Shown: one piece after another, positions 2,297-41,034 of the stretch | Layout of the letters: every line of letters begins with the position of its first letter | Numbering within the stretch: the stretch's first letter is position 1 | NCBI GenBank assembly: GCA_046346765.1 | Contig: JAXMHN010000006.1 | Location: 88,799 to 152,798 of the forward strand | DNA length: 64,000 nucleotides | Direction of reading: 5' to 3' | Origin: Verrucomicrobiota bacterium | Lineage (GTDB): Bacteria > Verrucomicrobiota > Verrucomicrobiia > Limisphaerales > SIBE01 | Position numbers and translations under genes: made by a program | Notes under the pieces: model-generated | Told to the model about the DNA's origin: nothing | The model's database searches: none | The model's input: only the letters and a program-made list of their open reading frames with translations

Positions 2297-3094
2297 ATGA
2301 AATGCGCTGGCTGGATGAGAGTGAGAGACGGTGGCCCGGTCGCCTTGCTCCCGAATCGGCCGTCGCGGCGGCGCGGCTTCACTTTGATCGAGTTGCTGGT
2401 CGTGATTGCGATTATCGCGATTTTGGCCGGGATGCTCTTGCCGGCGTTGGCCAAAGCGAAGGAGAAGGCGCAACGGGCCAAGTGCGTCTCCAATCTGCGG
2501 CAGCAAGCTCTGGCGTGTGTGATGTATTTGGACGACAACAAGGACAGGTTTCCGAGCCACAATGGAGGCATCGACTACACCTACTATTCCTGGGGGGGCA
2601 AAGTTGGATTGGAAGGGCAGGTGACCGGCAATCAATTCCGGATGCTCAATCCTTACATCGTGAAATCGACCGCCGTCACCACCAACGAGGCCGGGGCGGC
2701 GCTGACTTTTTTGTGCCCGTCCGATAACGGCGCGCGCAAAGCCAGTTGGCCGAAAGACCTGAAGCCGACCGTGTTTGACCAGGACGGGAGCAGCTATTTC
2801 TATAACTGCAGCGCGAACAACAACGATGGAGTCAAAGGGCTCTACGATAAGAAGACCTCGGACGTTAAGAATCCGGCCAAAACAGTGCTGGCCAATGATT
2901 TCGCTTTCAATTGCTACTTCGAATACGCCACCCGCCGGCGCGTGTTCCAATATATGTATTGGCACGATAGGAAGCGACTTGGAGCCGGCAACATCCTGTT
3001 TGTCGACTCTCATATCGGGTACAACCTCGCCACCACTGACAAGCCCGACTTCCAACGCGGTCCGTCCTGGACCTTCATCTACAACGATGAGTAG
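2297..3094 (+). CDS. prepilin-type N-terminal cleavage/methylation domain protein (DUF1559 / H-X9-DG pseudopilin-like)
   Basis: N-terminus [45 protein letters not shown] is the type IV/T2SS pseudopilin leader plus hydrophobic helix. C-terminal [12 protein letters not shown] resembles the family's conserved end. ATG start at 2297. Confidence 0.85.
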
Positions 3095-3119
3095 ACTCGC
3101 GTGAACTCCTCCAATCCAG

Positions 3120-5201
3120 ATGAACGCCGTTTCTGTTGTGCTTACTTTGGCTGTGCTGGGGAAATTGTCGCTGTCTGCCGGGGACGCGGAAACCGCTCGC
3201 TTGGCTGACGAGGTGCGGCCCCGTGGCTGGATTGCCTTTGCCGCTCGCTCCAACGCCGGCGATTGGGATCTCTTTTTGATGCGACCGGACGGATCGGAGC
3301 GACGGCCGCTGACCGAGACGCCGGCATGGAACGAGGGCGCTCCTCAATTCTCCCGGGATGGGAAGCGGTTGCTCTATCGCCGGCTCAAGCGGGTTGAGAC
3401 CATCGAAGGGAATCGCTATGGGGAGCAAGGGGCGCTGGTTCTGGCTAACAGCGACGGCTCGGCCGCGCGCGTCATTGCTGAGGAAGGCAAACTTCCCTGG
3501 GCAAGCTGGAGTCCAGACGGGCGAGAGCTGGCGATCCTGGAGCTGAAGGGCATCTCCTTCATCGATGCTGAGACCGGTCAGGTCCGCCGATCTCTCCCGC
3601 GACGCGGCTTCTTTCAACAGCTGACTTGGTCGCCGGACGGGAAGTGGCTGGTTGGGGTGGCTAACTCGTTTGGGACTGGCTGGAGCGTGGCCCGCATGCT
3701 GGTGCAGTCAGGCGAAGCGAGCGCGGTGAATACGGTGGATTGCTGCACGCCAGACTGGTTCCCCGACACAGGCGCGGTCATCTTCTCGTGGCGGCCTCCC
3801 GGGCAAAGGGCCAATCGCGGCAATGGCTGGACCCAGCTTTGGCGAGCTGATGCAGAGGGAAAAAGCCGGCAACTAGTCTACGGCGAAGATGGCCGGCACA
3901 TTTATGGTGGGCATGTCTCGCCGGATGGCCACTACGCCATCTTTTCGGGCAACCCCCAGGAAGACGGCGACCCCCAGCATGCCGGCGCGCCCATGGGCCT
4001 GGTTCGCCTTCGCGACGCTCCCATCATCACGGGCGCGAGCGCGGAACTGCGTGCGGTGCACCCCGATGCCAGAAGCGGGCCGGTTCTGATTTTGCCGACC
4101 GGTTGGGAGCCGTGCTGGACATTGAGCGAAGCACCGGTCAAGGCGGCCATACGCACGACGGCGCTTTCATCCGACCCAAACCTGGTCGCCGAGGCTAAGC
4201 CGACGGCAGCTGCTCCTCAGGCCGACCTCGATCAACCCGGCCGCTCCGAACTGGCCGCCGAACTTCGGGGCCGGGGTTGGGTCGTCTTTAGCGCCCAAAC
4301 CGCCGCTGGGGACTGGGACCTTTTCCTGACACGCCCGGACGGGTCGGAGCGGCATTCCATCACGAGGACGCGAGAGTCTAATGAAGCGGGCGCCCGCTTC
4401 TCCCCCGATGGCAAGCGGTTGCTTTATTATCGAATGCCGGCGCGGGAGGCGGTGGACAACAACACCTACGGAACGTTTGAGCTGATATTGGCTGATGCCG
4501 ATGGCCGGAACGCCGCCAGCTTCGGGCGCGACTTTCCCTGGGCTTCCTGGAGTCCGGACGGGCGGAAGATTGCCTGTCTCGTTCCGGGCGGCATTCGAAT
4601 CGTGGATGTGGGGAATCGGCAGGTGATGCGAACCGTTGCCCGCCAAGGCATCGTCCAGCAACTGGTTTGGTCGCCGGACGGCAAAGCCTTTACCGGAACC
4701 GCCAACGGATTGGGACCTTTTTGGAATATCGGCTGTCTGGCGGATGCCGGCGGCAAGATGAGCGCCGTAAGCGAAACCGAACGGTATAACTGCACTCCCG
4801 ACTGGTGTCCGGACAGCCGCCGGATTGTTTATGCTCGCGGCATCATCCCGAAGCAGGACGGCCGGGCCGAGTTGTGGGTGGGCAATGCGGCCGGGACCGA
4901 GCAACAGTTTCTTTATGGCGAGGAGCACCGGCACATTTACGGCGGCTGCCCTTCGCCCGATTCGAAGTACCTGCTCTTCACGCGGAGCGTCGAGGATCTC
5001 GGCGCCGTCGGCCGGTCGCAGACGACGATGGCCATTATCCGGTGGGCTGATACGCCCATGAATGGCGATGACAGCGCCGCGCTCCGAACCCGCTTTCCCA
5101 TGGCCAAACGCGGTCCGCGCCTTGACCTTGGCCCGGGCTGGGAGCCGCACTGGACCTATAGCGAAACCGCCGGGGCGCGTGGCGCAAGCGAAGGAAAATG
5201 A
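3120..5201 (+). CDS. secreted TolB-like (PD40/WD40-like) beta-propeller protein with two paralogous halves
   Basis: Signal-peptide-like N-terminus. PD40-type motifs occur twice: GDWDLFLMRPDGSERRPLTETPAWNEGAPQFSRDGKRLLYRR and GDWDLFLTRPDGSERHSITRTRESNEAGARFSPDGKRLLYYR. SWSPDG repeats are present. Confidence 0.8.
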   Translation: MNAVSVVLTLAVLGKLSLSAGDAETARLADEVRPRGWIAFAARSNAGDWDLFLMRPDGSERRPLTETPAWNEGAPQFSRDGKRLLYRRLKRVETIEGNRYGEQGALVLANSDGSAARVIAEEGKLPWASWSPDGRELAILELKGISFIDAETGQVRRSLPRRGFFQQLTWSPDGKWLVGVANSFGTGWSVARMLVQSGEASAVNTVDCCTPDWFPDTGAVIFSWRPPGQRANRGNGWTQLWRADAEGKSRQLVYGEDGRHIYGGHVSPDGHYAIFSGNPQEDGDPQHAGAPMGLVRLRDAPIITGASAELRAVHPDARSGPVLILPTGWEPCWTLSEAPVKAAIRTTALSSDPNLVAEAKPTAAAPQADLDQPGRSELAAELRGRGWVVFSAQTAAGDWDLFLTRPDGSERHSITRTRESNEAGARFSPDGKRLLYYRMPAREAVDNNTYGTFELILADADGRNAASFGRDFPWASWSPDGRKIACLVPGGIRIVDVGNRQVMRTVARQGIVQQLVWSPDGKAFTGTANGLGPFWNIGCLADAGGKMSAVSETERYNCTPDWCPDSRRIVYARGIIPKQDGRAELWVGNAAGTEQQFLYGEEHRHIYGGCPSPDSKYLLFTRSVEDLGAVGRSQTTMAIIRWADTPMNGDDSAALRTRFPMAKRGPRLDLGPGWEPHWTYSETAGARGASEGK

Positions 5202-26930: not shown

Positions 26931-29150
26931 ATGAAGCACGTGCCCAATCCATTCCTGATTGCTCCTCGTTCTCGTGCATCGCTGACCTGGTCGGTAGCAG
27001 CCCTTTGCGCGATCGCTGCCGTGGCGGCCGCGATCGTGGCGCAGGACGGACCTCCTGACGGCCCGCCCCCGGGGGATTTTGGAGGGCCGCCTGGACCAGG
27101 CGGGCCAGGGCAGGGCCGGCCGATGTTCTTTGGTGGTCCGATGCAAGAGGAGACGAAACTGGTCAAAGGCTTTGATAAGGACGGCGATGGGCGTCTTAAT
27201 GCCGCTGAAAGGAAGGCGGCGCGGGCCTCTCTCCAGAAGGAGCGGGCAAACGGGCGAGGGCGCCGCATGGGTGGACCTCCTGGTGGTCCCGGCGGAGGAT
27301 TGGGAGAGGTGGAGAATGCGAAGCCCGGTCCGAAAGTGTCGCCGGAGGAAGTGAAGATTTTTTCAGGGGCTGGATTGTATGACCCCATGGTGTTGCGCAC
27401 GTTCTTTCTGGAGTTCGAGGAGGCGGATTGGGAAAAGGAGCTGTCCGATTTTCACGATACCGATGTGGAGGTGCCGGCGAAACTGACGGTGGACGGCAAG
27501 GTATATCCCGATGTGGGGGTGCACTTTCGGGGCATGTCGTCTTACATGGCCGTGAGTGAGGGGCGGAAGCGTTCGTTGAATTTGAGCCTGGATTTCGCCC
27601 ACAAGGAGCAGAACGTCGGCGGCTATCGCACGCTGAACCTGCTCAATTCGCACGAGGATCCCAGTTTCCTGCGATCGGTTCTGTCTTATCAGATTGATCG
27701 TTCCTATATACCTGCTCCGAAAGCCAACCTGGCGCGAGTGGTCATCAACGGAGAGAGTTGGGGCATCTACGTCAACGTCCAGCAGTTCAACAAAGACTTT
27801 GTCAAAGACTGGTTCGGGACGACCAAAGGCGCGCGTTGGAAGGTGCGCGGCAGCCCGGGAGGTCAGGGGAGTCTCGCTTATCTGGGCGAGGACGCGGCGG
27901 CTTACAAGCGGATCTACACGATCAAAACGAAGGACGAACCCAAGCGCTGGGCCGATCTCATTCGCCTCTGTAAAGTCCTGAATCAAACTCCCCCCGAGCG
28001 GCTGGAAGAAGCCTTGGCGCCTTTGCTCGACATCGATGGCGCCCTCAAGTTCCTCGCGCTCGACAATGCTTTGATCAATAACGACGGGTATTGGATTCGG
28101 ACCAGTGACTATGCCCTTTATCAAGATGAAAAGGGCCGGTTCCATCTCATCCCGCAGGACTCCAATGAGACCTTCGCCCAACCCGGAGGTCCAGGCTTTG
28201 GCGGCGGGCCCGGTGGCCCGAGGTTTTTCGGACCGGGAATGTTCCTGGCGCCGGCGATCATGAGCCAGGCTGACAAGGACGCCGATCAAACCCTGAACAA
28301 AGCGGAATTCACCGCCCTGGCGGACACGTGGTTTGACAAACTCGATTCGGAGAAGGCCGGCAAGCTATCCCAGGAGCAGTTCAACGAAAGGTTTGGCGAG
28401 CTCCTGCCCGCTCAACCAGTCTTTCAGAGAGGCCGCGGCGGACCAGGCGGTGGCCCTGGCGCCGGCGGCGGTGGCGGCCGCAATTTCGGTCCCGCCCGAT
28501 TCGCAGCCCAAGGCATCTTTGCGGCTGCTGATAAGGATAAAGACGGCCAACTCTCCCGGAGCGAACTGCGGTCGACTTTGGAAAAGTGGTTTGAGCAGTG
28601 GGATGCGGATCATGCAGGTTCCATTGACGGCGAGAAGCTGCGAACGGGACTGGCAGCCGCTCTCCCTCCGCCCAACGCCCGTTTCGGAGGCGGCCCGCCG
28701 GGCGGGGGGCAGGCCGGACCTGGACCAGCTGGGCGGCCTGGCTTTGGTGGAGGTGGAGCGCCAGGAGGCGCCGTCCAGACGAAAGGCGTGGAACTGGACC
28801 CGTTGGTCGCGGCCAACGACGCGAGCAAACCGCTGATTTCCAAATTGCTGGCTGTTCCAGCGCTGCGCGCCCGCTACCTGCAATACGTTCGCGACATCGC
28901 GGAGAATTGGCTGGATTGGCAAAAGCTCGGGCCGATCGCGGAACAGTACCAGGCCTTGATTACCGAAGACGTTAAAAGCGATACGCGCAAGCTGGATTCA
29001 ACCGAAGCATTCCTCGCTTCCATTACTCAGGATGTGCCAGGTAACGGCTTCGGGCCCTTTGGCCGCGGCACGATTGGGCTGAAAAACTTCGCCGCCCAAC
29101 GGCAGAAGTACCTTTTGGAAAAGACGGAAGTGAAAGCGGCTCCGCGTTAG
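26931..29150 (+). CDS. secreted CotH-family (atypical kinase fold) protein fused to EF-hand calcium-binding loops and Gly/Pro-rich tracts
   Basis: Signal peptide. CotH-like core (LNLLNSHEDPSFLRSVLSYQIDRSYIPAPKANLARVVINGESWGIYVNVQQFNKDF). EF-hand loops DKDGDGRLNAAE, DKDADQTLNKAE, DKDKDGQLSRSE, DADHAGSIDGEK. Confidence 0.8.
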   Translation: MKHVPNPFLIAPRSRASLTWSVAALCAIAAVAAAIVAQDGPPDGPPPGDFGGPPGPGGPGQGRPMFFGGPMQEETKLVKGFDKDGDGRLNAAERKAARASLQKERANGRGRRMGGPPGGPGGGLGEVENAKPGPKVSPEEVKIFSGAGLYDPMVLRTFFLEFEEADWEKELSDFHDTDVEVPAKLTVDGKVYPDVGVHFRGMSSYMAVSEGRKRSLNLSLDFAHKEQNVGGYRTLNLLNSHEDPSFLRSVLSYQIDRSYIPAPKANLARVVINGESWGIYVNVQQFNKDFVKDWFGTTKGARWKVRGSPGGQGSLAYLGEDAAAYKRIYTIKTKDEPKRWADLIRLCKVLNQTPPERLEEALAPLLDIDGALKFLALDNALINNDGYWIRTSDYALYQDEKGRFHLIPQDSNETFAQPGGPGFGGGPGGPRFFGPGMFLAPAIMSQADKDADQTLNKAEFTALADTWFDKLDSEKAGKLSQEQFNERFGELLPAQPVFQRGRGGPGGGPGAGGGGGRNFGPARFAAQGIFAAADKDKDGQLSRSELRSTLEKWFEQWDADHAGSIDGEKLRTGLAAALPPPNARFGGGPPGGGQAGPGPAGRPGFGGGGAPGGAVQTKGVELDPLVAANDASKPLISKLLAVPALRARYLQYVRDIAENWLDWQKLGPIAEQYQALITEDVKSDTRKLDSTEAFLASITQDVPGNGFGPFGRGTIGLKNFAAQRQKYLLEKTEVKAAPR

Positions 29151-29191
29151 TTCGTTAGTGCGGCGGCCTCAGCTTGGGCTGGACTCATCGG

Positions 29192-29237
29192 AACTCTTCC
29201 GTTGGCACGAACCGTGTCGACGGAAGAGTTTCTTTTT
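29192..29237 (+). terminator. rho-independent terminator after the CotH-EF-hand gene
   Basis: Perfect 11-bp stem AACTCTTCCGT/ACGGAAGAGTT with a 17-nt loop, followed by TCTTTTT. A second perfect 10-bp hairpin (GTCTGGCCGC/GCGGCCAGAC) lies at 29244-29269. Confidence 0.7.
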
Positions 29238-29304
29238 GCGGGAGTCTGGCCGCAAGGACGCGGCCAGACCTGCACACCTTTTCAGGCAGCTGGAATCGGG
29301 CTAA

Positions 29305-29994
29305 TTAATGAGAGCCGCGAATGACGTCATCGTTTTCCTCAGCAGCGGCTCGCCTGACGGCGTTGATTTCAGCGCGCGTGACGCTGCCATCATCGTTGAC
29401 GTCGTAGAGGTCGAGGAACGATTGAATCTCGGCGTCGACTACCTGCTTGCTCGCTGCCAGGCTCTCCTCCGAGGAGATAGCGCCGTCTTTGTTCGTGTCA
29501 TACTTGGCCAGGAAGGCCGCGTGCAAACGGTTGGTCAATGACGTGACGGCACTGGCCAATTCCCCCGCGGAAAGGGCGCCGTCGTTGTCCTGATCGTAGG
29601 CGTCCAGAAGGATGAAACCTTCCAAGCCACGGACGGCGTCGTGCAACTCCTCGCTGCTGAGGGCGTGATCATCGTTGCGGTCCGCTTCCAACAGACCCTC
29701 GAGCCATTGGTTGGCGGCGGCTTGATGCACCGCCGTGGATTCAACTGAACTGATGGTTCCGTCGGTGTTGGTGTCATAGCGCTTCAGAAGTTGCGCCTGG
29801 AGTTTTCCGGCAAGCGACTGGCTTGCGGCGGTCAGTTCGGCACTCGACACCGTTCCGTCACGATTGGTGTCATAGCGCATGAATGAGGCGAGGGTTTCGC
29901 CATGGCCTCCGCCCGGTCCCGGTCCAGCCAGGGTAACTCCGATTGAGCAAACGGTTGCCGTTGCGATCGTAATAGTGACTAGATGTTTGTTCAT
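29305..29994 (-). CDS. secreted protein with six EF-hand-like calcium-binding loops
   Basis: Start at ATG 29994 (MNKHLVTITIATATVCSIGVTLA signal peptide). Loops: YDTNRDGTVSSAE, YDTNTDGTISSVE, ADRNDDHALSSEE, YDQDNDGALSAGE, YDTNKDGAISSEE, YDVNDDGSVTRAE. The N-terminal 117 codons of the track ORF are the translated octamer repeat. Confidence 0.8.
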   Translation of the reverse strand: MNKHLVTITIATATVCSIGVTLAGPGPGGGHGETLASFMRYDTNRDGTVSSAELTAASQSLAGKLQAQLLKRYDTNTDGTISSVESTAVHQAAANQWLEGLLEADRNDDHALSSEELHDAVRGLEGFILLDAYDQDNDGALSAGELASAVTSLTNRLHAAFLAKYDTNKDGAISSEESLAASKQVVDAEIQSFLDLYDVNDDGSVTRAEINAVRRAAAEENDDVIRGSH

Positions 29995-30078
29995 AACACT
30001 GCAAAGCAGTTGACGGCGCCCTGACTCCTGCGCCGACAAGCTGCGGTGGATTTCTTTGTTGAGCCAGGCCAGAACGAG

Positions 30079-30354
30079 CCAAGAACCCAAGGAACCAAGA
30101 ACCCAAGGAACCAAGGAACCAAGGAACCAAGGAGCCAAGAACCCAAGGAACCAAGAACCAAGGAACCAAGGAGCCAAGAACCCAAGGAACCAAGGAACCA
30201 AGGAACCAAGGAGCCAAGAACCCAAGGAACCAAGAACCCAAGGAACCAAGAACCCAAGAACCCAAGAACCCAAGAACCCAAGGAACCAAGGACCCAAGGA
30301 GCCAAAGGACCAAGGAACCAAGGAACCAAGGAACCAAGGAACCAAGGAACCAAG
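30079..30354. repeat. about 34.5 tandem copies of an 8-nt unit (CCAAGGAA and variants), noncoding
   Basis: Hand segmentation: 17x CCAAGGAA, 10x CCAAGAAC, 4x CCAAGGAG, one each of CCAAGGAC, CCAAAGGA and the 7-nt CCAAGAA, plus a terminal CCAAG. The + strand has no T from 30061 to 30357. Confidence 0.95.
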
Positions 30355-30583
30355 CCATTCCTTTATGGCGCTGGAGAGCTCCGGCGGATCGGAGACACGT
30401 CATGGCGAAAAGCGGTCCTCCCTAGACAATGACTGAGACGGCTACAGCCGCGAGCTTCCTCACCGCGCCCGGACGCGCGTGCGCGTCTCGTGTGCGGCCT
30501 CAGCCAATCGTCCGGTCGGGAACTGCCCATCACGGCCGATTTGAATGCAGACTCACTGCCAGAACGGGCAGGCCCATGCCGTG

Positions 30584-31297
30584 TTAGTACGACAGTTTCA
30601 GCCCGTGGCCATCCGGAGCAGAGGCAAGTTTCAAACGAAGCCCAAATTCAATCAGGCCGGCCATCGTCCGAATCCCCAGTTTTCGCATCATCCGATAGCG
30701 GTAAGTCTCGACCGATCGCAACCTCAAGCCAAGTTGGCCGGCAATGGATCTGCTCGTGTGACCGCTGGCCACCAGACGCAAGACGTCCTGCTCGCGCGCA
30801 TTGAGGATTTTGTTGAACGCACCCGGGTCCGCGCGCAGGACAGCTTGGGTGCGAGCCCAAACGGCCGTGAAGTAATCCCGGCCTGACGCAACCTCCACCA
30901 CGGCTTCCTCGACAATCTCGAGTGGCTGATCCTTCTCGACGAAGCCGTGCACGCGAAGTTCCTTCAGCCGCTGGAGCGTGAGCGGATCTGCACTCTGCGA
31001 GAGCACCAGGATGCGCAACGTCGGCAGATGCTTGCCCAGCTGCGCCAGCGCCTGGAGCGCGTCTCCCCGAGGCAGGCAAACGTCCGCGATCAGCAGATCG
31101 GGGCGGGAGCGCAGACAAATATCCCGGGCTTGGGCAGCGTCATCCAGGTCCGCTGTCAGCTGAAAGCGACCGTCAGCTTCAAGCGCTTTCGCGAGCAGGC
31201 CGCGCAAGAGTGGCTGCCCTTCGAGCAGGACCGTCCGCCATGGGGGCGTCGACGCTGCGGACCTCCTCGGCGGAGTCAAGGGAGGGGCCGAGTTCAT
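30584..31297 (-). CDS. NarL/LuxR-family response regulator (receiver + HTH), atypical acidic pocket, no cognate kinase nearby
   Basis: Start at ATG 31297 (MNSAPPL...). The receiver has phospho-acceptor LLIADVCLP, Ser (ILVLSQS) and Lys (GFVEKD), but EG replaces the usual N-terminal DD (VLLEGQPLL). The C-terminal LuxR HTH is LNAREQDVLRLVASGHTSRSIAGQLGLRLRSVETYRYRMMRKLG. Confidence 0.85.
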   Translation of the reverse strand: MNSAPPLTPPRRSAASTPPWRTVLLEGQPLLRGLLAKALEADGRFQLTADLDDAAQARDICLRSRPDLLIADVCLPRGDALQALAQLGKHLPTLRILVLSQSADPLTLQRLKELRVHGFVEKDQPLEIVEEAVVEVASGRDYFTAVWARTQAVLRADPGAFNKILNAREQDVLRLVASGHTSRSIAGQLGLRLRSVETYRYRMMRKLGIRTMAGLIEFGLRLKLASAPDGHGLKLSY

Positions 31298-31317
31298 GCG
31301 TGATGCGGACAGCGGCG

Positions 31318-32418
31318 TCAGGGCAGTCGCGGCCCTCCTCCGCCGGCGCCCGCTCCGGGCGTTCCAGTGTCGGCGCCGGGAACCCGGAAGGAGACATAAT
31401 AAAAGCCTTTCTGCGCCTTTTCCTCGACGAACAGGTCCAAGTCCCCTTCGCTCGTCGCGGTGTAGATGTTGCGGTCGATGGCTGCCGCGGCGGAGAGGGC
31501 AAAGGGCAGGGCTGCCCAAGTGAGTTCGCCTAACGTCGGGTTGCTGTAGACTTCGTAACTGTAGCCAGCATAGGCCGGGATGCGTAAGCGAAATCGGGGA
31601 CTGCTGCTGGTCGGCCCGGCCACAGGCGTGCCCGCCACCAGCAAGCTGCCGCCAGGGTAAGTCGGCTCTACCGGCGTCACGCCCCGCACAATGTCCCAGG
31701 TGGTCTCCTCTTCGCCCAGAGTGGATCCGTTCACCGGAACGAAATCCTTCACGACCGAAGCGCGCTGCGCTGGATCGGAGATGCCGTTTAAGACCGAGTC
31801 ATTGGCGTTGGTTGTTCCCCAGGTGCTCCCGTTGGCCGCGGTCGCCACTTCGTTCCAATAGAGTTGGGTGGTGAATCGAGTCAATTCGCCGGGAAGCGTC
31901 ACGCCGAAGTGAGCGTGGCGGGTGCGACCTTGATACAATCCCGCCTTGATCGTGCGGAAGAGGTATTGCCCTGTCGACCCGGTCAAGAACTGGCCGAAGC
32001 CGGCGAAGTTCGGGTCGGCCGCGGGATTGCGTTGCGCCGTGGTGGAATAAATATACTCGCCGCTATCATCCGCATGCCATAGCTCGACGAGGGCGCCACG
32101 GACCGGGTTCCCTTCGCTATCAAGGACGCGGCCTGAGATGTAGGTGATGGTGCCCGTGGCCGGAGTGAGACTGTCGTTCAAGTAAAGGAGGTCATTATCC
32201 TTATCCAAAGGAATATTGTTGTAGGGCGAGACGCTCGGATAGTAAGGCCCCTGGGTTTGCTCGGGCGTTAAGGTCAAGGCTTCGGCCAAAGCGCCGCGAA
32301 CGGTAAACCCAGCGGTCGCCAAGGCCATGCTCTGAAAGAAGCGACGGCGATTGACCGGGATGTGGAATCGTTGTGGTAACCTATGAACTGGTTGCATGCC
32401 ACACCCTACGCGGTCCAC
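31318..32418 (-). CDS. Tat-signal intradiol-dioxygenase-like (protocatechuate dioxygenase beta-subunit-like) secreted protein with C-terminal beta module
   Basis: Twin-arginine motif NRRRFFQSMALATAGF. TPEQTQGPYYP, GRVLDSEGNPVRGALVELWHADDSGEYIY and RTRHAHFGV are typical of the intradiol dioxygenase fold. The start may be the internal M at 32397. Confidence 0.7.
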   Translation of the reverse strand: MDRVGCGMQPVHRLPQRFHIPVNRRRFFQSMALATAGFTVRGALAEALTLTPEQTQGPYYPSVSPYNNIPLDKDNDLLYLNDSLTPATGTITYISGRVLDSEGNPVRGALVELWHADDSGEYIYSTTAQRNPAADPNFAGFGQFLTGSTGQYLFRTIKAGLYQGRTRHAHFGVTLPGELTRFTTQLYWNEVATAANGSTWGTTNANDSVLNGISDPAQRASVVKDFVPVNGSTLGEEETTWDIVRGVTPVEPTYPGGSLLVAGTPVAGPTSSSPRFRLRIPAYAGYSYEVYSNPTLGELTWAALPFALSAAAAIDRNIYTATSEGDLDLFVEEKAQKGFYYVSFRVPGADTGTPGAGAGGGGPRLP

Positions 32419-38132: not shown

Positions 38133-41034
38133 GTCACGAGACCATGCGATCGACGCTCCTGATCCAGGGAGCGCGTGAAAATAACCTGCGCAACATCACC
38201 GTCGAGCTGCCGCGGGGCAAGCTGGTGATTATCACCGGCGTCTCGGGCTCGGGCAAATCGTCCCTGGCCTTTGATACGCTTTATGCGGAAGGTCAACGAC
38301 GGCTGCTCGCTTCGATGTCGGCCTACGCGAAACGCTTTGTCAATCAACTGCGCAAGCCGGATGTCGACTTTGTCCAGGGCCTCTCCCCGGTGATCTCGAT
38401 TGACCAGAAGACCGTCGGCAGCAACCCGCGTTCGACCGTCGGGACGATGACCGACCTTTCGGATTATCTTCGGATGCTTTACGCCACCCTGGGAACACCT
38501 CATTGCCCTCGGTGCGACGAGCCGGTCGCAACCCGATCCCTCCAGCAGATGCTCGAACATCTGCTCCAACTGCCCCGAGGCGCCGAAGTGGAAGTGCGCG
38601 CGCCGGTTTTCGAAATCTTTGGCGAGGATTGGGAGCACGTCTTTGAACAGGTGCGCTTGCAAGGGTATCGGCGCGTCCGGATCGATGGAGCTCTTAAGGA
38701 CCTCGGCGGACCCTTGGAACTGGACGAAGAGGAACATCCGTGGGTCGAGGCAGTCATCGATCGCTTTGTTGTCGGCCCGGGAATCGATCGCCAGGTCCTG
38801 GCGTCGCTGAGCACGGCGAAAGTGGGTGACGGGTTTCTTTCTTTTCATCCCGAGGGCTTGTCACGCGGCTGCCAAAAGCTTCTGGAAGGGATTCGGGTGT
38901 GCCGAGCATCACTTTGCATCGCGCCACCCTGCATCATGCTCACTTCACCTTCAATGATCCGTCAGGCGCGTGTCGGACTTGTGCCGGCCTGGGCACTTCC
39001 AAGCGGGTCCACCCGACCCTGCTGGTTCCGGATCCGAGTCGGACTTTGAGTGACGGCGCGATCGTCAAAGAAGCGTTCAACCACGATAAGAACGCCTGGG
39101 GCGGACGTTGGCTCCATAGTCTATCGCGCCATTATGGCTTCCGCCTCGACGTCCCTTTCGCCAACCTTTCCCAGGACGCCCAAGACCTCATCTTCCACGG
39201 CAGCAAAGGCGAAAAAGTCGAAATTGTCCTGCCGGACGGCGCTCGGCAGGGAGAACAGCACGTGGGCAAAAAATTGCCTTTCCCAGGTGTGGTGACGCAA
39301 ATCGAACGCCATTACCACTGGTATCGCAAACAAGGCCGGAGCACCGATGGCATGGAAGCTTACCTCCAGAAGGTCATGGTCGATTATGATTGCCCGGACT
39401 GCGGCGGGGCCCGGCTCCGCAAGTCCCGCAGCCTCGTGCGCATCGAAGGAAAGAGCCTGCCTGATGTCGGTCAGTTGCATTTGCGCGACTTGAAAAAATG
39501 GCTCACCACCCTCGACCTGACCGCGGATAAGACGGCCGTTGCAGCCACGGTAGTGCGCGAAATCGAGGGCCGGATCGACCTGCTCGTCGGCATCGGATTG
39601 GATTACCTCAATCTCAGCCGTCGCTCGGGCACCTTGTCCGGGGGCGAATCGCAGCGCATCCGCTTGTCTACCCAGATCGGCTCCGGGCTGATGGGGATGC
39701 TCTACGTCCTCGACGAACCGAGCATCGGTCTGCACGCGAAGGACAATGTGAAAATGATCCGCACGCTGGAACGGCTGCGCGACCTCGGCAACACCGTCAT
39801 CGTGGTCGAACATGACGAGGAGACGATTCGCGCCGCCGACTGGCTGATCGAAATCGGCCCAGGCCCCGGCATTCACGGTGGCCAGGTCGTGGCTCAAGGT
39901 CCCCCCGCAACGGTCCTGGCCGATCCTCATTCCCTCACCGGCGCGTTCCTCCGCGGGGAGCGGCAGATCGTCACTCCTGCGCAGCGCCGTGCGGGTGGCA
40001 AAGGCCGTTTGCGGATTCACGGAGCCCGTCACAACAACCTCCAGAATCTGGATGTCGAGATACCCCTGGGCGTGTTGGTCTGTGTGACCGGCGCTTCCGG
40101 GTCGGGCAAGAGTTCGCTCGTGCACGAGATCGTCTTCAAGAAACTCGCCTCCCTGCGCTATGACAGCCGCATCCTCGCGGGCGAACATGACACATTCGAG
40201 GGCCACGGCGGCGTCGATGATGTCATCGACGTCGATCAGTCGCCGATCGGCCGATCGCCTCGTTCCAACCCCGCGACTTATGTCGGGGTTTACGATTCCA
40301 TCCGCCAGCTCTTCGCCGAAACGGAAGAAGCCAAGGCGCGGGGCTTTGGCCCGGCCCAATTCAGCTTCAATGTTAAAGGCGGCCGTTGCGAGGAGTGCGC
40401 CGGCGACGGCGTGATCGTGACTCAACTTTCCTTTATGCCCGACGTGGAAGTGACCTGCCCAGCCTGCAAAGGCCGCCGCTATCGCGAGGAAACACTCGAA
40501 GTTTCCTGGCACGGCCGGAACATCGCTGAGGTGCTGAAACTATCGATCGAAGAGAGCGTCGCCTTCTTTGCCAAGGAACGCCCCATCGCGCGCAAACTGG
40601 AAATCCTACACGAACTTGGTCTGGGTTATCTGGAGCTCGGCCATGCCGCCACCATTCGCTCCGGCGGCGAGGCCCAACGCGTCAAGCTCGCCGCTGAGCT
40701 TGGCAAAATCCGCCGCGGCCGGCACAACCTTTACATTCTTGACGAGCCGACCACCGGGCTTCATCTCGCCGATATCCAAAGGCTGCTCGATTGCCTGCAA
40801 CGGTTGGTGGATGCCGGTCATTCCGTCCTCGTGATTGAACACCACCTCGACGTCATCAAGTGCGCTGACTGGATCCTGGATCTCGGACCCGAAGGCGGAC
40901 ATCAAGGCGGTCGGCTGCTCGTCGCAGGCACACCCGAAACGGTCGCCGCTTCCGCCACTTCCCATACCGGCCGGGCGCTCAAAGCCCATCTCGAATCGTC
41001 CCAGACCCGCGCGCCGTCTCGCAAACGCCGGTAG
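38129..41034 (+). pseudogene. uvrA: excinuclease ABC subunit A, single frameshift near 38918-38921 (or consensus error)
   Basis: N-terminus [48 protein letters not shown]. Two ABC modules (LSGGESQRIRL, LSGGEAQRVKL) and Zn modules are present. The sequence aligns along its length with my recollection of E. coli UvrA. Frame A (38129 onward) and frame B (ORF 38899..41034) join as ...VCRASLC(I)[25 protein letters not shown]. Confidence 0.9.

Follow-up and report, generated by a model that had tools for sequence, protein, structure and literature searches.

A long octanucleotide tandem array between a response regulator gene and an EF-hand protein gene of a Verrucomicrobiota bacterium is probably a lineage-specific variable number tandem repeat

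We describe here a tandem array of some 34 octanucleotide units found in the genome of an uncultured Verrucomicrobiota bacterium (assembly GCA_046346765.1, contig JAXMHN010000006.1). The stretch of DNA that we analysed, called the window throughout, is 64 kb long. The array lies within a tract devoid of T on the + strand, between two genes coded on the - strand, one for a NarL-type response regulator and the other for a secreted EF-hand protein. We consider it likely that the array is a lineage-specific octanucleotide variable number tandem repeat (VNTR) that grew by slippage, is probably transcribed in the leader of the EF-hand gene and serves at most as a length-dependent rheostat. The feature is real and visually striking, yet it is best filed as an ordinary intergenic VNTR or simple sequence repeat (SSR), and there is no evidence for more exotic functions.

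Structure of the octamer array

A base count placed the T-free tract at positions 30061-30357, exactly as in a preliminary description of this DNA, with 140 A, 88 C and 69 G in its 297 nt. The second-longest T-free run of the window, whose GC content is 61%, measures 50 nt. Tandem Repeats Finder detected a repeat of period 8 at 30079-30354, with 34.6 copies, 85% matches, no scored indels, the consensus CCAAGGAA and a score of 356, by far the strongest tandem repeat in the window. Splitting the array sequence at CCAA yielded the same unit census as had been given before, i.e. 34 units and a partial one. They comprise 17 CCAAGGAA, 10 CCAAGAAC, four CCAAGGAG, one CCAAGGAC, one CCAAAGGA and one 7-nt CCAAGAA, followed by a terminal CCAAG. 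The 13-mer CCAAGGAACCAAG, which extends across a unit junction, has 21 matches with at most one mismatch, every one of them within the array, where shuffled sequences would be expected to give 0.11. By both measures, the short units are thus arranged head to tail, as in tandem SSRs and VNTRs.

The units are not distributed at random along the array. Their order, with one letter per unit, is BABAAACBAbACBAAACBABABBBBADCEAAAAA-, and the succession GGAG-GAAC-GGAA (C-B-A) occurs three times at a spacing of 5 units (~40 bp), which is the higher-order pattern noticed earlier. The regulator-proximal end of the array is homogeneous, with five identical units, and the edge closest to the EF-hand gene is decayed (GAGCCAGG CCAGAACG). 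No second octamer array was found in the window, either with Tandem Repeats Finder or in the 13-mer scan. Similarly, the window has no excess of dispersed (Chi-like) octamers, with just three extra copies of CCAAGGAAC, all of them in coding DNA.

The - strand is the sense strand for both flanking genes, and the array consensus on that strand reads TTCCTTGG; the T-free strand is therefore antisense to both. The preliminary description had the tract filling a gap of 590 nt between the regulator and the EF-hand gene. Its placement between the two genes stands, and their identities were confirmed by Pfam, but the gap has 589 nt, only half of which (297 nt) belong to the tract. The ATG of the EF-hand gene, which is downstream of the array on the - strand, is 66 nt away from the tract.

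Five open reading frames (ORFs) overlap the tract. As had been surmised, they are non-coding by-products of its composition: since the tract has no T on the + strand and no A on the - strand, no stop codon is possible in any frame. The peptides that the array would encode are PRNQGTKE on the + strand and FLGSLVPW on the - strand, also in agreement with the preliminary description. It is extremely improbable that the tract is translated, for instance as an upstream ORF with FLGSLVPW repeats in which the gain or loss of units switches frames. None of the three - strand frames closes between the array and the EF-hand start; one of them is in frame with the EF-hand gene (ORF 29305-30345), and another stops at 29991-29993, with a TGA that overlaps the EF-hand ATG (ATGA). 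However, these open frames are forced by base composition, and an 8-nt period is incompatible with keeping the reading frame. Moreover, the EF-hand protein begins with a signal-peptide-like sequence of its own, which lines up with the start of its counterpart in a relative (L108, see below). That relative is devoid of such an extension, and EF-hand homologues lack an N-terminal repeat of this kind.

The same locus in related genomes

In that relative (L108/L109), the regulator and the EF-hand protein are 68% and 61% identical, respectively, to those of the window, and the EF-hand gene comes directly after the regulator gene on the same strand. The gap between them is 31 nt to the annotated ATG, or 61 nt if counted to the MKK start, which is the counterpart of the MNK start of the window in the alignment, and it contains no tandem repeat. 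The homology between the window and L108 in the spacer is limited to ~50 nt around and just after the regulator stop codon. No significant L108 counterpart was found for the 183-nt sequence adjoining the array, for the array itself or for the last 66 nt before the EF-hand gene. The array is thus absent from the orthologous site of the relative. Because L108 has the same gene pair directly adjacent without the repeat, the array is a lineage-specific expansion and not a conserved operator, and sequence comparison argues that it has no sequence-specific conserved role.

The segment shared with L108 (30541-30594) has blocks with 23/29 and 12/15 identical positions in the pairwise alignment, and BLAST aligned 22 nt of it at 91% identity. 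It would mark the ancestral short spacer. This segment sits in a predicted stable hairpin that is retained in the centroid fold, and it might act as a terminator or attenuator, or else as an operator of the EF-hand gene that follows. The 183-nt sequence, for its part, was compared with the 5' end and the signal peptide of the EF-hand gene, of which it might be a relic, and the similarity was not significant relative to shuffles.

The preliminary description had proposed that the array binds the adjacent regulator. As an iterated operator, the octamers would bind this NarL-type protein or another DNA-binding protein, titrating or polymerising it to control the EF-hand gene. The array does adjoin the gene of a regulator with a GerE-type helix-turn-helix (HTH) domain, and the pairing of the regulator and EF-hand genes is conserved. 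However, the putative sites are not conserved along with the regulator, as the L108 pair has a spacer of 31-61 nt without repeat. GerE-type HTH dimers are expected to bind dyad-symmetric sites, whereas the units are direct repeats devoid of dyad symmetry. In B-DNA, an 8-bp period sets successive sites on different faces of the helix. Octamer arrays are also found beside unrelated genes in many phyla. An operator function of this type is thus very unlikely.

The array was found in a second data set, a Logan short-read contig (L107; SRR26348421) whose regulator is 100% identical to that of the window and is preceded by the same upstream genes. Past the regulator gene, the first 255 nt of L107 are identical to the window. 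A divergent patch of ~25 nt comes next, the match resumes at GGAATGGCTTGG, and the contig, having reached the junction seen in the window, runs out after 3.8 units of the array. It thus independently confirms the array and its regulator-side junction, and its end inside the array is the usual short-read break at a long repeat. The divergent patch beside the array (window 30358-30385 vs. L107 6815-6856, about 25-30 nt) harbours many substitutions and 3 nt of indels, and in L107 it removes a + strand ATG at 30367 and a - strand TAA at 30363-30365. It could represent a strain variant, local conversion or an assembly error.

Regulator orthologues with 62-71% identity keep the dioxygenase-like/regulator gene order where the upstream gene has a domain match. 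Four of the orthologue contigs (P0002, which is L146, and P0004, P0005 and P0006 from the Joint Genome Institute) stop 19-181 nt past the regulator stop codon. These contigs are 1.1-3.5 kb long, and a shared end position is improbable by chance, which suggests that several relatives may have a repeat here that interrupts assembly. The last 19 nt of the P0002 contig contain no repeat. Regulators with at most 56% identity are found in other gene contexts, without arrays. Scanning metagenomes with the regulator returned just paralogues or distant relatives (at most 53% identity), none with arrays.

The search for EF-hand homologues gave matches of at most 51% identity and no near-identical contig; the EF-hand-side junction of the sister strain was not recovered. 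The regulator is called as a 207-aa version (P0001) in the database, and its ORF in the window codes for 237 aa. Exact-protein look-ups for the EF-hand protein, the 237-aa regulator and UvrA found no record, and only the 207-aa version led to a contig.

Transcription signals and predicted RNA structures

A consensus scan found no terminator-like site on the - strand between the regulator and EF-hand genes. Because no - strand intrinsic terminator separates the two genes, read-through transcription of the array is plausible. The only + strand terminator-like site found by consensus scan (30031-30048) is upstream of the array. The RNAs of the two strands of the tract differ in their predicted folding: that of the - strand has a minimum free energy of -99 kcal/mol and a z score of -5.7, vs. 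a z score of -0.4 for that of the + strand, which is unstructured. The centroid structure is empty for both. No Rfam family matched at E<=10 in the 29000-31500 region, and none reached the gathering threshold in the whole window.

The preliminary description had also likened the + strand of the array to a sponge RNA that sequesters CsrA, on account of 23 GGA motifs. Their number agrees with our unit census (23 in 276 nt). A + strand non-coding RNA with such single-stranded GGA or AAGGA(G) motifs would be a CsrA/RsmA sponge or a Shine-Dalgarno (SD) mimic soaking up 30S subunits. The motifs are dense and would be accessible, given that the RNA is predicted to be unstructured, and the AAGGAG units correspond to the canonical SD core. 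At some other loci (e.g. L037, L038, L039 and L070), only a few nt separate the end of a sense-oriented array from a start codon. Nevertheless, this proposal is not supported, and we regard it as highly improbable. In addition to the absence of an Rfam match, consensus scans detected neither a promoter-like site nor a + strand terminator downstream of the array that would delimit an independent transcription unit, and a + strand RNA would continue into the regulator gene, antisense to it. No + strand ORF is conserved: the sole small one after the array, with its ATG at 30367, is lost in L107. Six-frame translations of the window contain no CsrA signature. Finally, RNAs of the CsrB/RsmZ type show GGA in hairpin loops, and such loops are absent here; nor do arrays elsewhere show an orientation bias.

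Similar arrays in other genomes

We scanned one genome per species for the pattern (CCAAGRAN)x3+CCAAG, which corresponds to 3.6 units. Such arrays were found at no fewer than 106 loci (a lower bound) across many phyla; the repeat is thus scattered widely across genomes. According to the preliminary description, a genome-wide scatter would make it a generic microsatellite. Among the matches listed, the phyla include Proteobacteria, Actinomycetota, Bacillota, Chloroflexota, Acidobacteriota, Spirochaetota, Bacteroidota and Verrucomicrobiota/PVC (Planctomycetota-Verrucomicrobiota-Chlamydiota), along with others; most of the arrays listed have 4-7 units, and a small number reach 20 units or more. 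One Chloroflexales metagenome-assembled genome (MAG) contains several arrays of 150-300 nt. The Treponema sp. TIM-1 isolate (L097 4496-4685, +) has 23 near-perfect CCAAGGAA units in an intergenic region of 685 nt. This array is located 214 nt upstream, in the sense orientation, of a gene coding for a lipoprotein-like protein with GGGV/GNTA repeats.

At the 74 loci with enough flanking sequence, ORFs of at least 150 aa that start within 120 nt downstream of the array are in the sense orientation in 26 cases and antisense in 23. By this ORF heuristic, which is crude and noisy in GC-rich genomes, CCAAGRAN arrays show no orientation preference toward downstream genes. In viral contigs, a 4.6-unit CCAAGRAN pattern occurs 6 times, and three composition-matched control octamers occur 8, 1 and 9 times; a fourth control, GCCAARAN, was discarded as it overlaps the target class by rotation. 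The CCAAGRAN unit is thus not specially favoured, at least in viral contigs.

The arrays are unevenly distributed among genomes, with 27 of the 106 listed loci in just 9 genomes, which points to genome-specific amplification of one octamer type. These genomes include Chloroflexales La3_concoct.174 (five loci), Actinomycetota FK_Sedi_B_Bin.58 (four loci) and Duganella NGEE_A_bin19 (four loci with shared flanks). The three loci of Caulobacteraceae Ki1-2-2m_bin-386 have a conserved TTCACCG-like junction, and two loci of one Chthoniobacterales MAG display the same alternating 16-nt pattern. A ~330-nt element resembling a miniature inverted-repeat transposable element (MITE) is present in at least two copies in one Verrucomicrobia MAG (L027, - strand ~2790-3120, and L093, ~700-1030). 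It has 22-nt terminal inverted repeats CCTTAGCCGTATCCATGCAGTA and carries (CCAAGAAT)x3.6. In some genomes, CCAAGRAN arrays therefore appear to spread or to arise repeatedly.

These observations raise the possibility that the array of the window belongs to a genome-wide, unit-specific repeat family, STRR-like (see below) or borne by MITEs, and that it owes its presence to a mobile element or to a dedicated spreading process instead of having a local origin. The genomes with several loci, the MITE-like element and the pattern shared by the two Chthoniobacterales loci would all fit such a family. However, the window contains a single array, and the inserted sequence has no MITE-like boundaries, i.e. 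no terminal inverted or direct repeats and no target-site duplication beyond what is expected from shuffles. In addition, the spacer around the array is dissimilar to the flanks of any other array that we found. We thus consider this origin unlikely for the locus described here.

Some of the other loci have particular arrangements. In two PVC-group contigs (L018, - strand 4907-5050, and L073, 2302-2515), two inverted arrays bracket the core of a divergent intergenic region, such that the sense strand of each divergent gene reads (TTCCTTGG)n ahead of the start. In L034, a partial inverted copy follows the array. Lastly, in L036 (60-3239, -), an alternating CCAAGAAG/CCAAGGAA array is found in frame in an ORF resembling xanthine dehydrogenase, where it is flanked by the conserved motifs TVEG and LHPVQ and adds a charged insert of ~60 aa (GTKKPRNQEAKEPRSQ...).

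The array might also be a member of an unrecognised, phylogenetically widespread class of A/C/G-only CCAAGRAN repeats with cis-regulatory functions, amplified at several loci per genome, that here would exert copy-number-dependent control over the EF-hand gene. In one orientation, the repeats would provide SD-like AAGGAG leaders, and in the other anti-SD-like or self-pairing (UUCCUUGG)n leaders; the class would include the inverted pairs of L018 and L073. We found nothing in the literature on the repeat sequence. A regulatory class of this kind seems distinctly unlikely to us.

Reliability of the assembly

The uvrA gene of the window (38144-41004, +) is split by a frameshift near 38842-38896: frame 2 codes for the N-terminal 250 aa and frame 1 for the remainder. 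The split is either an assembly indel or the mark of a pseudogene of a core repair gene. The database entry for this protein is a truncated form of 711 aa. UvrA has a 100% identical counterpart in NCBI, and its nearest relatives (~87%) are from Verrucomicrobiales. Since the assembly has at least one frameshift, the exact copy number of the array and its lone 7-nt unit are not certain, and the latter may be an indel error.

A further explanation is that the array is real but that its length and its irregular units were exaggerated or scrambled when long reads of this low-complexity DNA were assembled. Besides the frameshift in uvrA, the single 7-nt unit, the single CCAAAGGA unit and the 25-nt patch beside the array that disagrees with L107 are compatible with this explanation. 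On the other hand, the independent short-read contig reaches the same junction and enters the array, and an ordered higher-order pattern that occurs three times is unlike random error. The synteny of the regulator and EF-hand genes in L108 speaks against a chimeric join across the array. We therefore deem an assembly artefact of this kind quite improbable.

Genetic environment of the array

The features of the locus are presented in Table 1. The receiver domain of the regulator has LLEGQ where NarL has LIDDH, and the acidic Mg-binding pair is thus lost. The phospho-acceptor Asp and the Ser/Thr and Lys positions look retained. This is true of all its close orthologues (P0001-P0006). No histidine kinase gene adjoins that of the regulator, which by its sequence is possibly atypical and phosphorylation-independent. 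Downstream of the array, two convergent genes for secreted EF-hand-bearing proteins are found side by side, one of the CotH-kinase-like type with Gly/Pro-rich linkers and the other with six EF-hands. Their proximity suggests a calcium-related extracellular module.

Table 1. Features of the regulator/EF-hand locus (positions in the window)
Feature	Position	Strand	Evidence
Octanucleotide tandem array, 34 units + partial	30079..30354	+	Tandem Repeats Finder, unit census, shuffles, 5-unit higher-order repeat
Full T-free tract; ~2 decayed units (GAGCCAGG CCAGAACG AG) at the EF-hand edge, CCA at the other edge	30061..30357	+	Base count, edge reading
Unique lineage-specific spacer, 183 nt, GC-rich, between conserved segment and array	30358..30540		No significant L108 similarity
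Conserved segment across the regulator stop codon and just downstream, core TGGCAGNGAGTNTGCATTCAA	30541..30594	-	Alignment to L108 6640-6692
EF-hand protein gene, 229 aa, six DxDxDG loops, signal-peptide-like N-terminus	29305..29994	-	Pfam EF-hand_1/5/6/7, E ~1e-22
Response regulator gene (receiver + GerE, NarL/LuxR-type), upstream of the array on the - strand	30584..31297	-	Pfam Response_reg + GerE
Dioxygenase_C-like gene	31318-32418	-	Domain match
CotH + EF-hand protein gene	26931-29150	+	Domain match

Proposed origin and possible role of the array

Higher-order unit structure is typical of slippage or unequal exchange. We propose that replication slippage and unequal exchange of several units at a time enlarged the array within the short spacer between the regulator and EF-hand genes, a conserved pair with the same orientation. 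This growth, together with the 183 nt of unique sequence, would have moved the EF-hand start codon to ~590 nt from the regulator gene. Most likely, the array is transcribed as (UUCCUUGG)n in the intercistronic region or the 5' leader of the EF-hand mRNA, and this RNA is predicted to fold back on itself in many registers via G-C and G-U pairs. If the array has a phenotypic effect, this would be of the rheostat type: the number of copies would tune EF-hand expression in a heritable yet reversible way. A slipped-strand repeat that alters the geometry of the leader is the only hypothesis of the preliminary description that is compatible with the lineage specificity of the array, its higher-order structure and the short-read break. 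The variation in copy number that this hypothesis implies was not observed.

Several points weigh against the array being an unstable, transcribed VNTR. No promoter-like site was located by consensus scan; transcription through the array is thus something that we infer. No copy-number polymorphism was seen, as L107, the sole independent assembly, stops inside the array. The array is also imperfect, and its longest pure run of 5 units, with 85% matches overall, implies a lower expected slippage rate. With the indel in uvrA of the source assembly, the copy number and the odd units may include errors. Lastly, pure neutral slippage does not predict the recurrence of arrays at several loci of the same genome, and the recurrence of one unit type within genomes hints at spreading or unit-specific processes.

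Comparison with known repeat systems

The closest characterised system is that of Haemophilus influenzae, in which hmw1A and hmw2A are preceded by (ATCTTTC)n arrays with 9-28 copies of a heptamer and the copy number is inversely related to expression (PMC2424069, PMC12721329). The hmw repeat is transcribed within the 5' untranslated region and is part of a long RNA hairpin processed by RNase III (PMC2424069, PMC12721329). Like it, the array described here is a long succession of 7-8 nt units (~34 copies) that separates an upstream region from the start of a gene for a secreted or surface protein, and the RNA of its sense strand, (UUCCUUGG)n, has few purines and should form long imperfect duplexes according to folding predictions. 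In contrast, the unit sequences are unrelated, the array of the window is imperfect, and the genes on either side of it point the same way and adjoin each other in a relative. Furthermore, the hmw genes belong to a host-adapted pathogen, whereas the array was found in an environmental Verrucomicrobiota MAG. By analogy, the array may function like the hmw repeat; it may equally be neutral.

Bacterial VNTR loci, as used in multiple-locus VNTR analysis (MLVA) to type Burkholderia, Francisella and Xylella, consist of 6-12 bp units in intergenic DNA. The array of the window shares with them a short unit, tens of copies, an intergenic location, lineage specificity and unit variants with higher-order structure. 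VNTR/MLVA loci are defined by polymorphism between strains, whereas this array is known from one full-length assembly.

Short tandemly repeated repetitive (STRR) sequences of cyanobacteria are arrays of heptamers. They resemble the array in being short-unit tandem repeats in intergenic DNA, and in other genomes CCAAGRAN arrays are similarly present at several loci. However, there is a single array in the window, its unit is of 8 instead of 7 nt, and the sequence is different. With CsrB, RsmY and RsmZ, the array has in common a high density of GGA motifs on one strand. Unlike these RNAs, it has no covariance-model match, no GGA stem-loops and no promoter or terminator signals; it is not kept in the relative L108, and no csrA was seen in the window.

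Significance

The T-free tract accounts for five spurious ORF calls and for the breaks that short-read assemblies of this lineage show immediately past the regulator gene. As Treponema sp. TIM-1 is cultivable, it offers an organism in which an array of this type could be studied. Regulation by SSR rheostats has so far been characterised almost only in host-adapted pathogens. If the number of repeats varies and tunes the production of the EF-hand protein, the array would extend this type of regulation to free-living, uncultured Verrucomicrobiota and to an operon-internal spacer.

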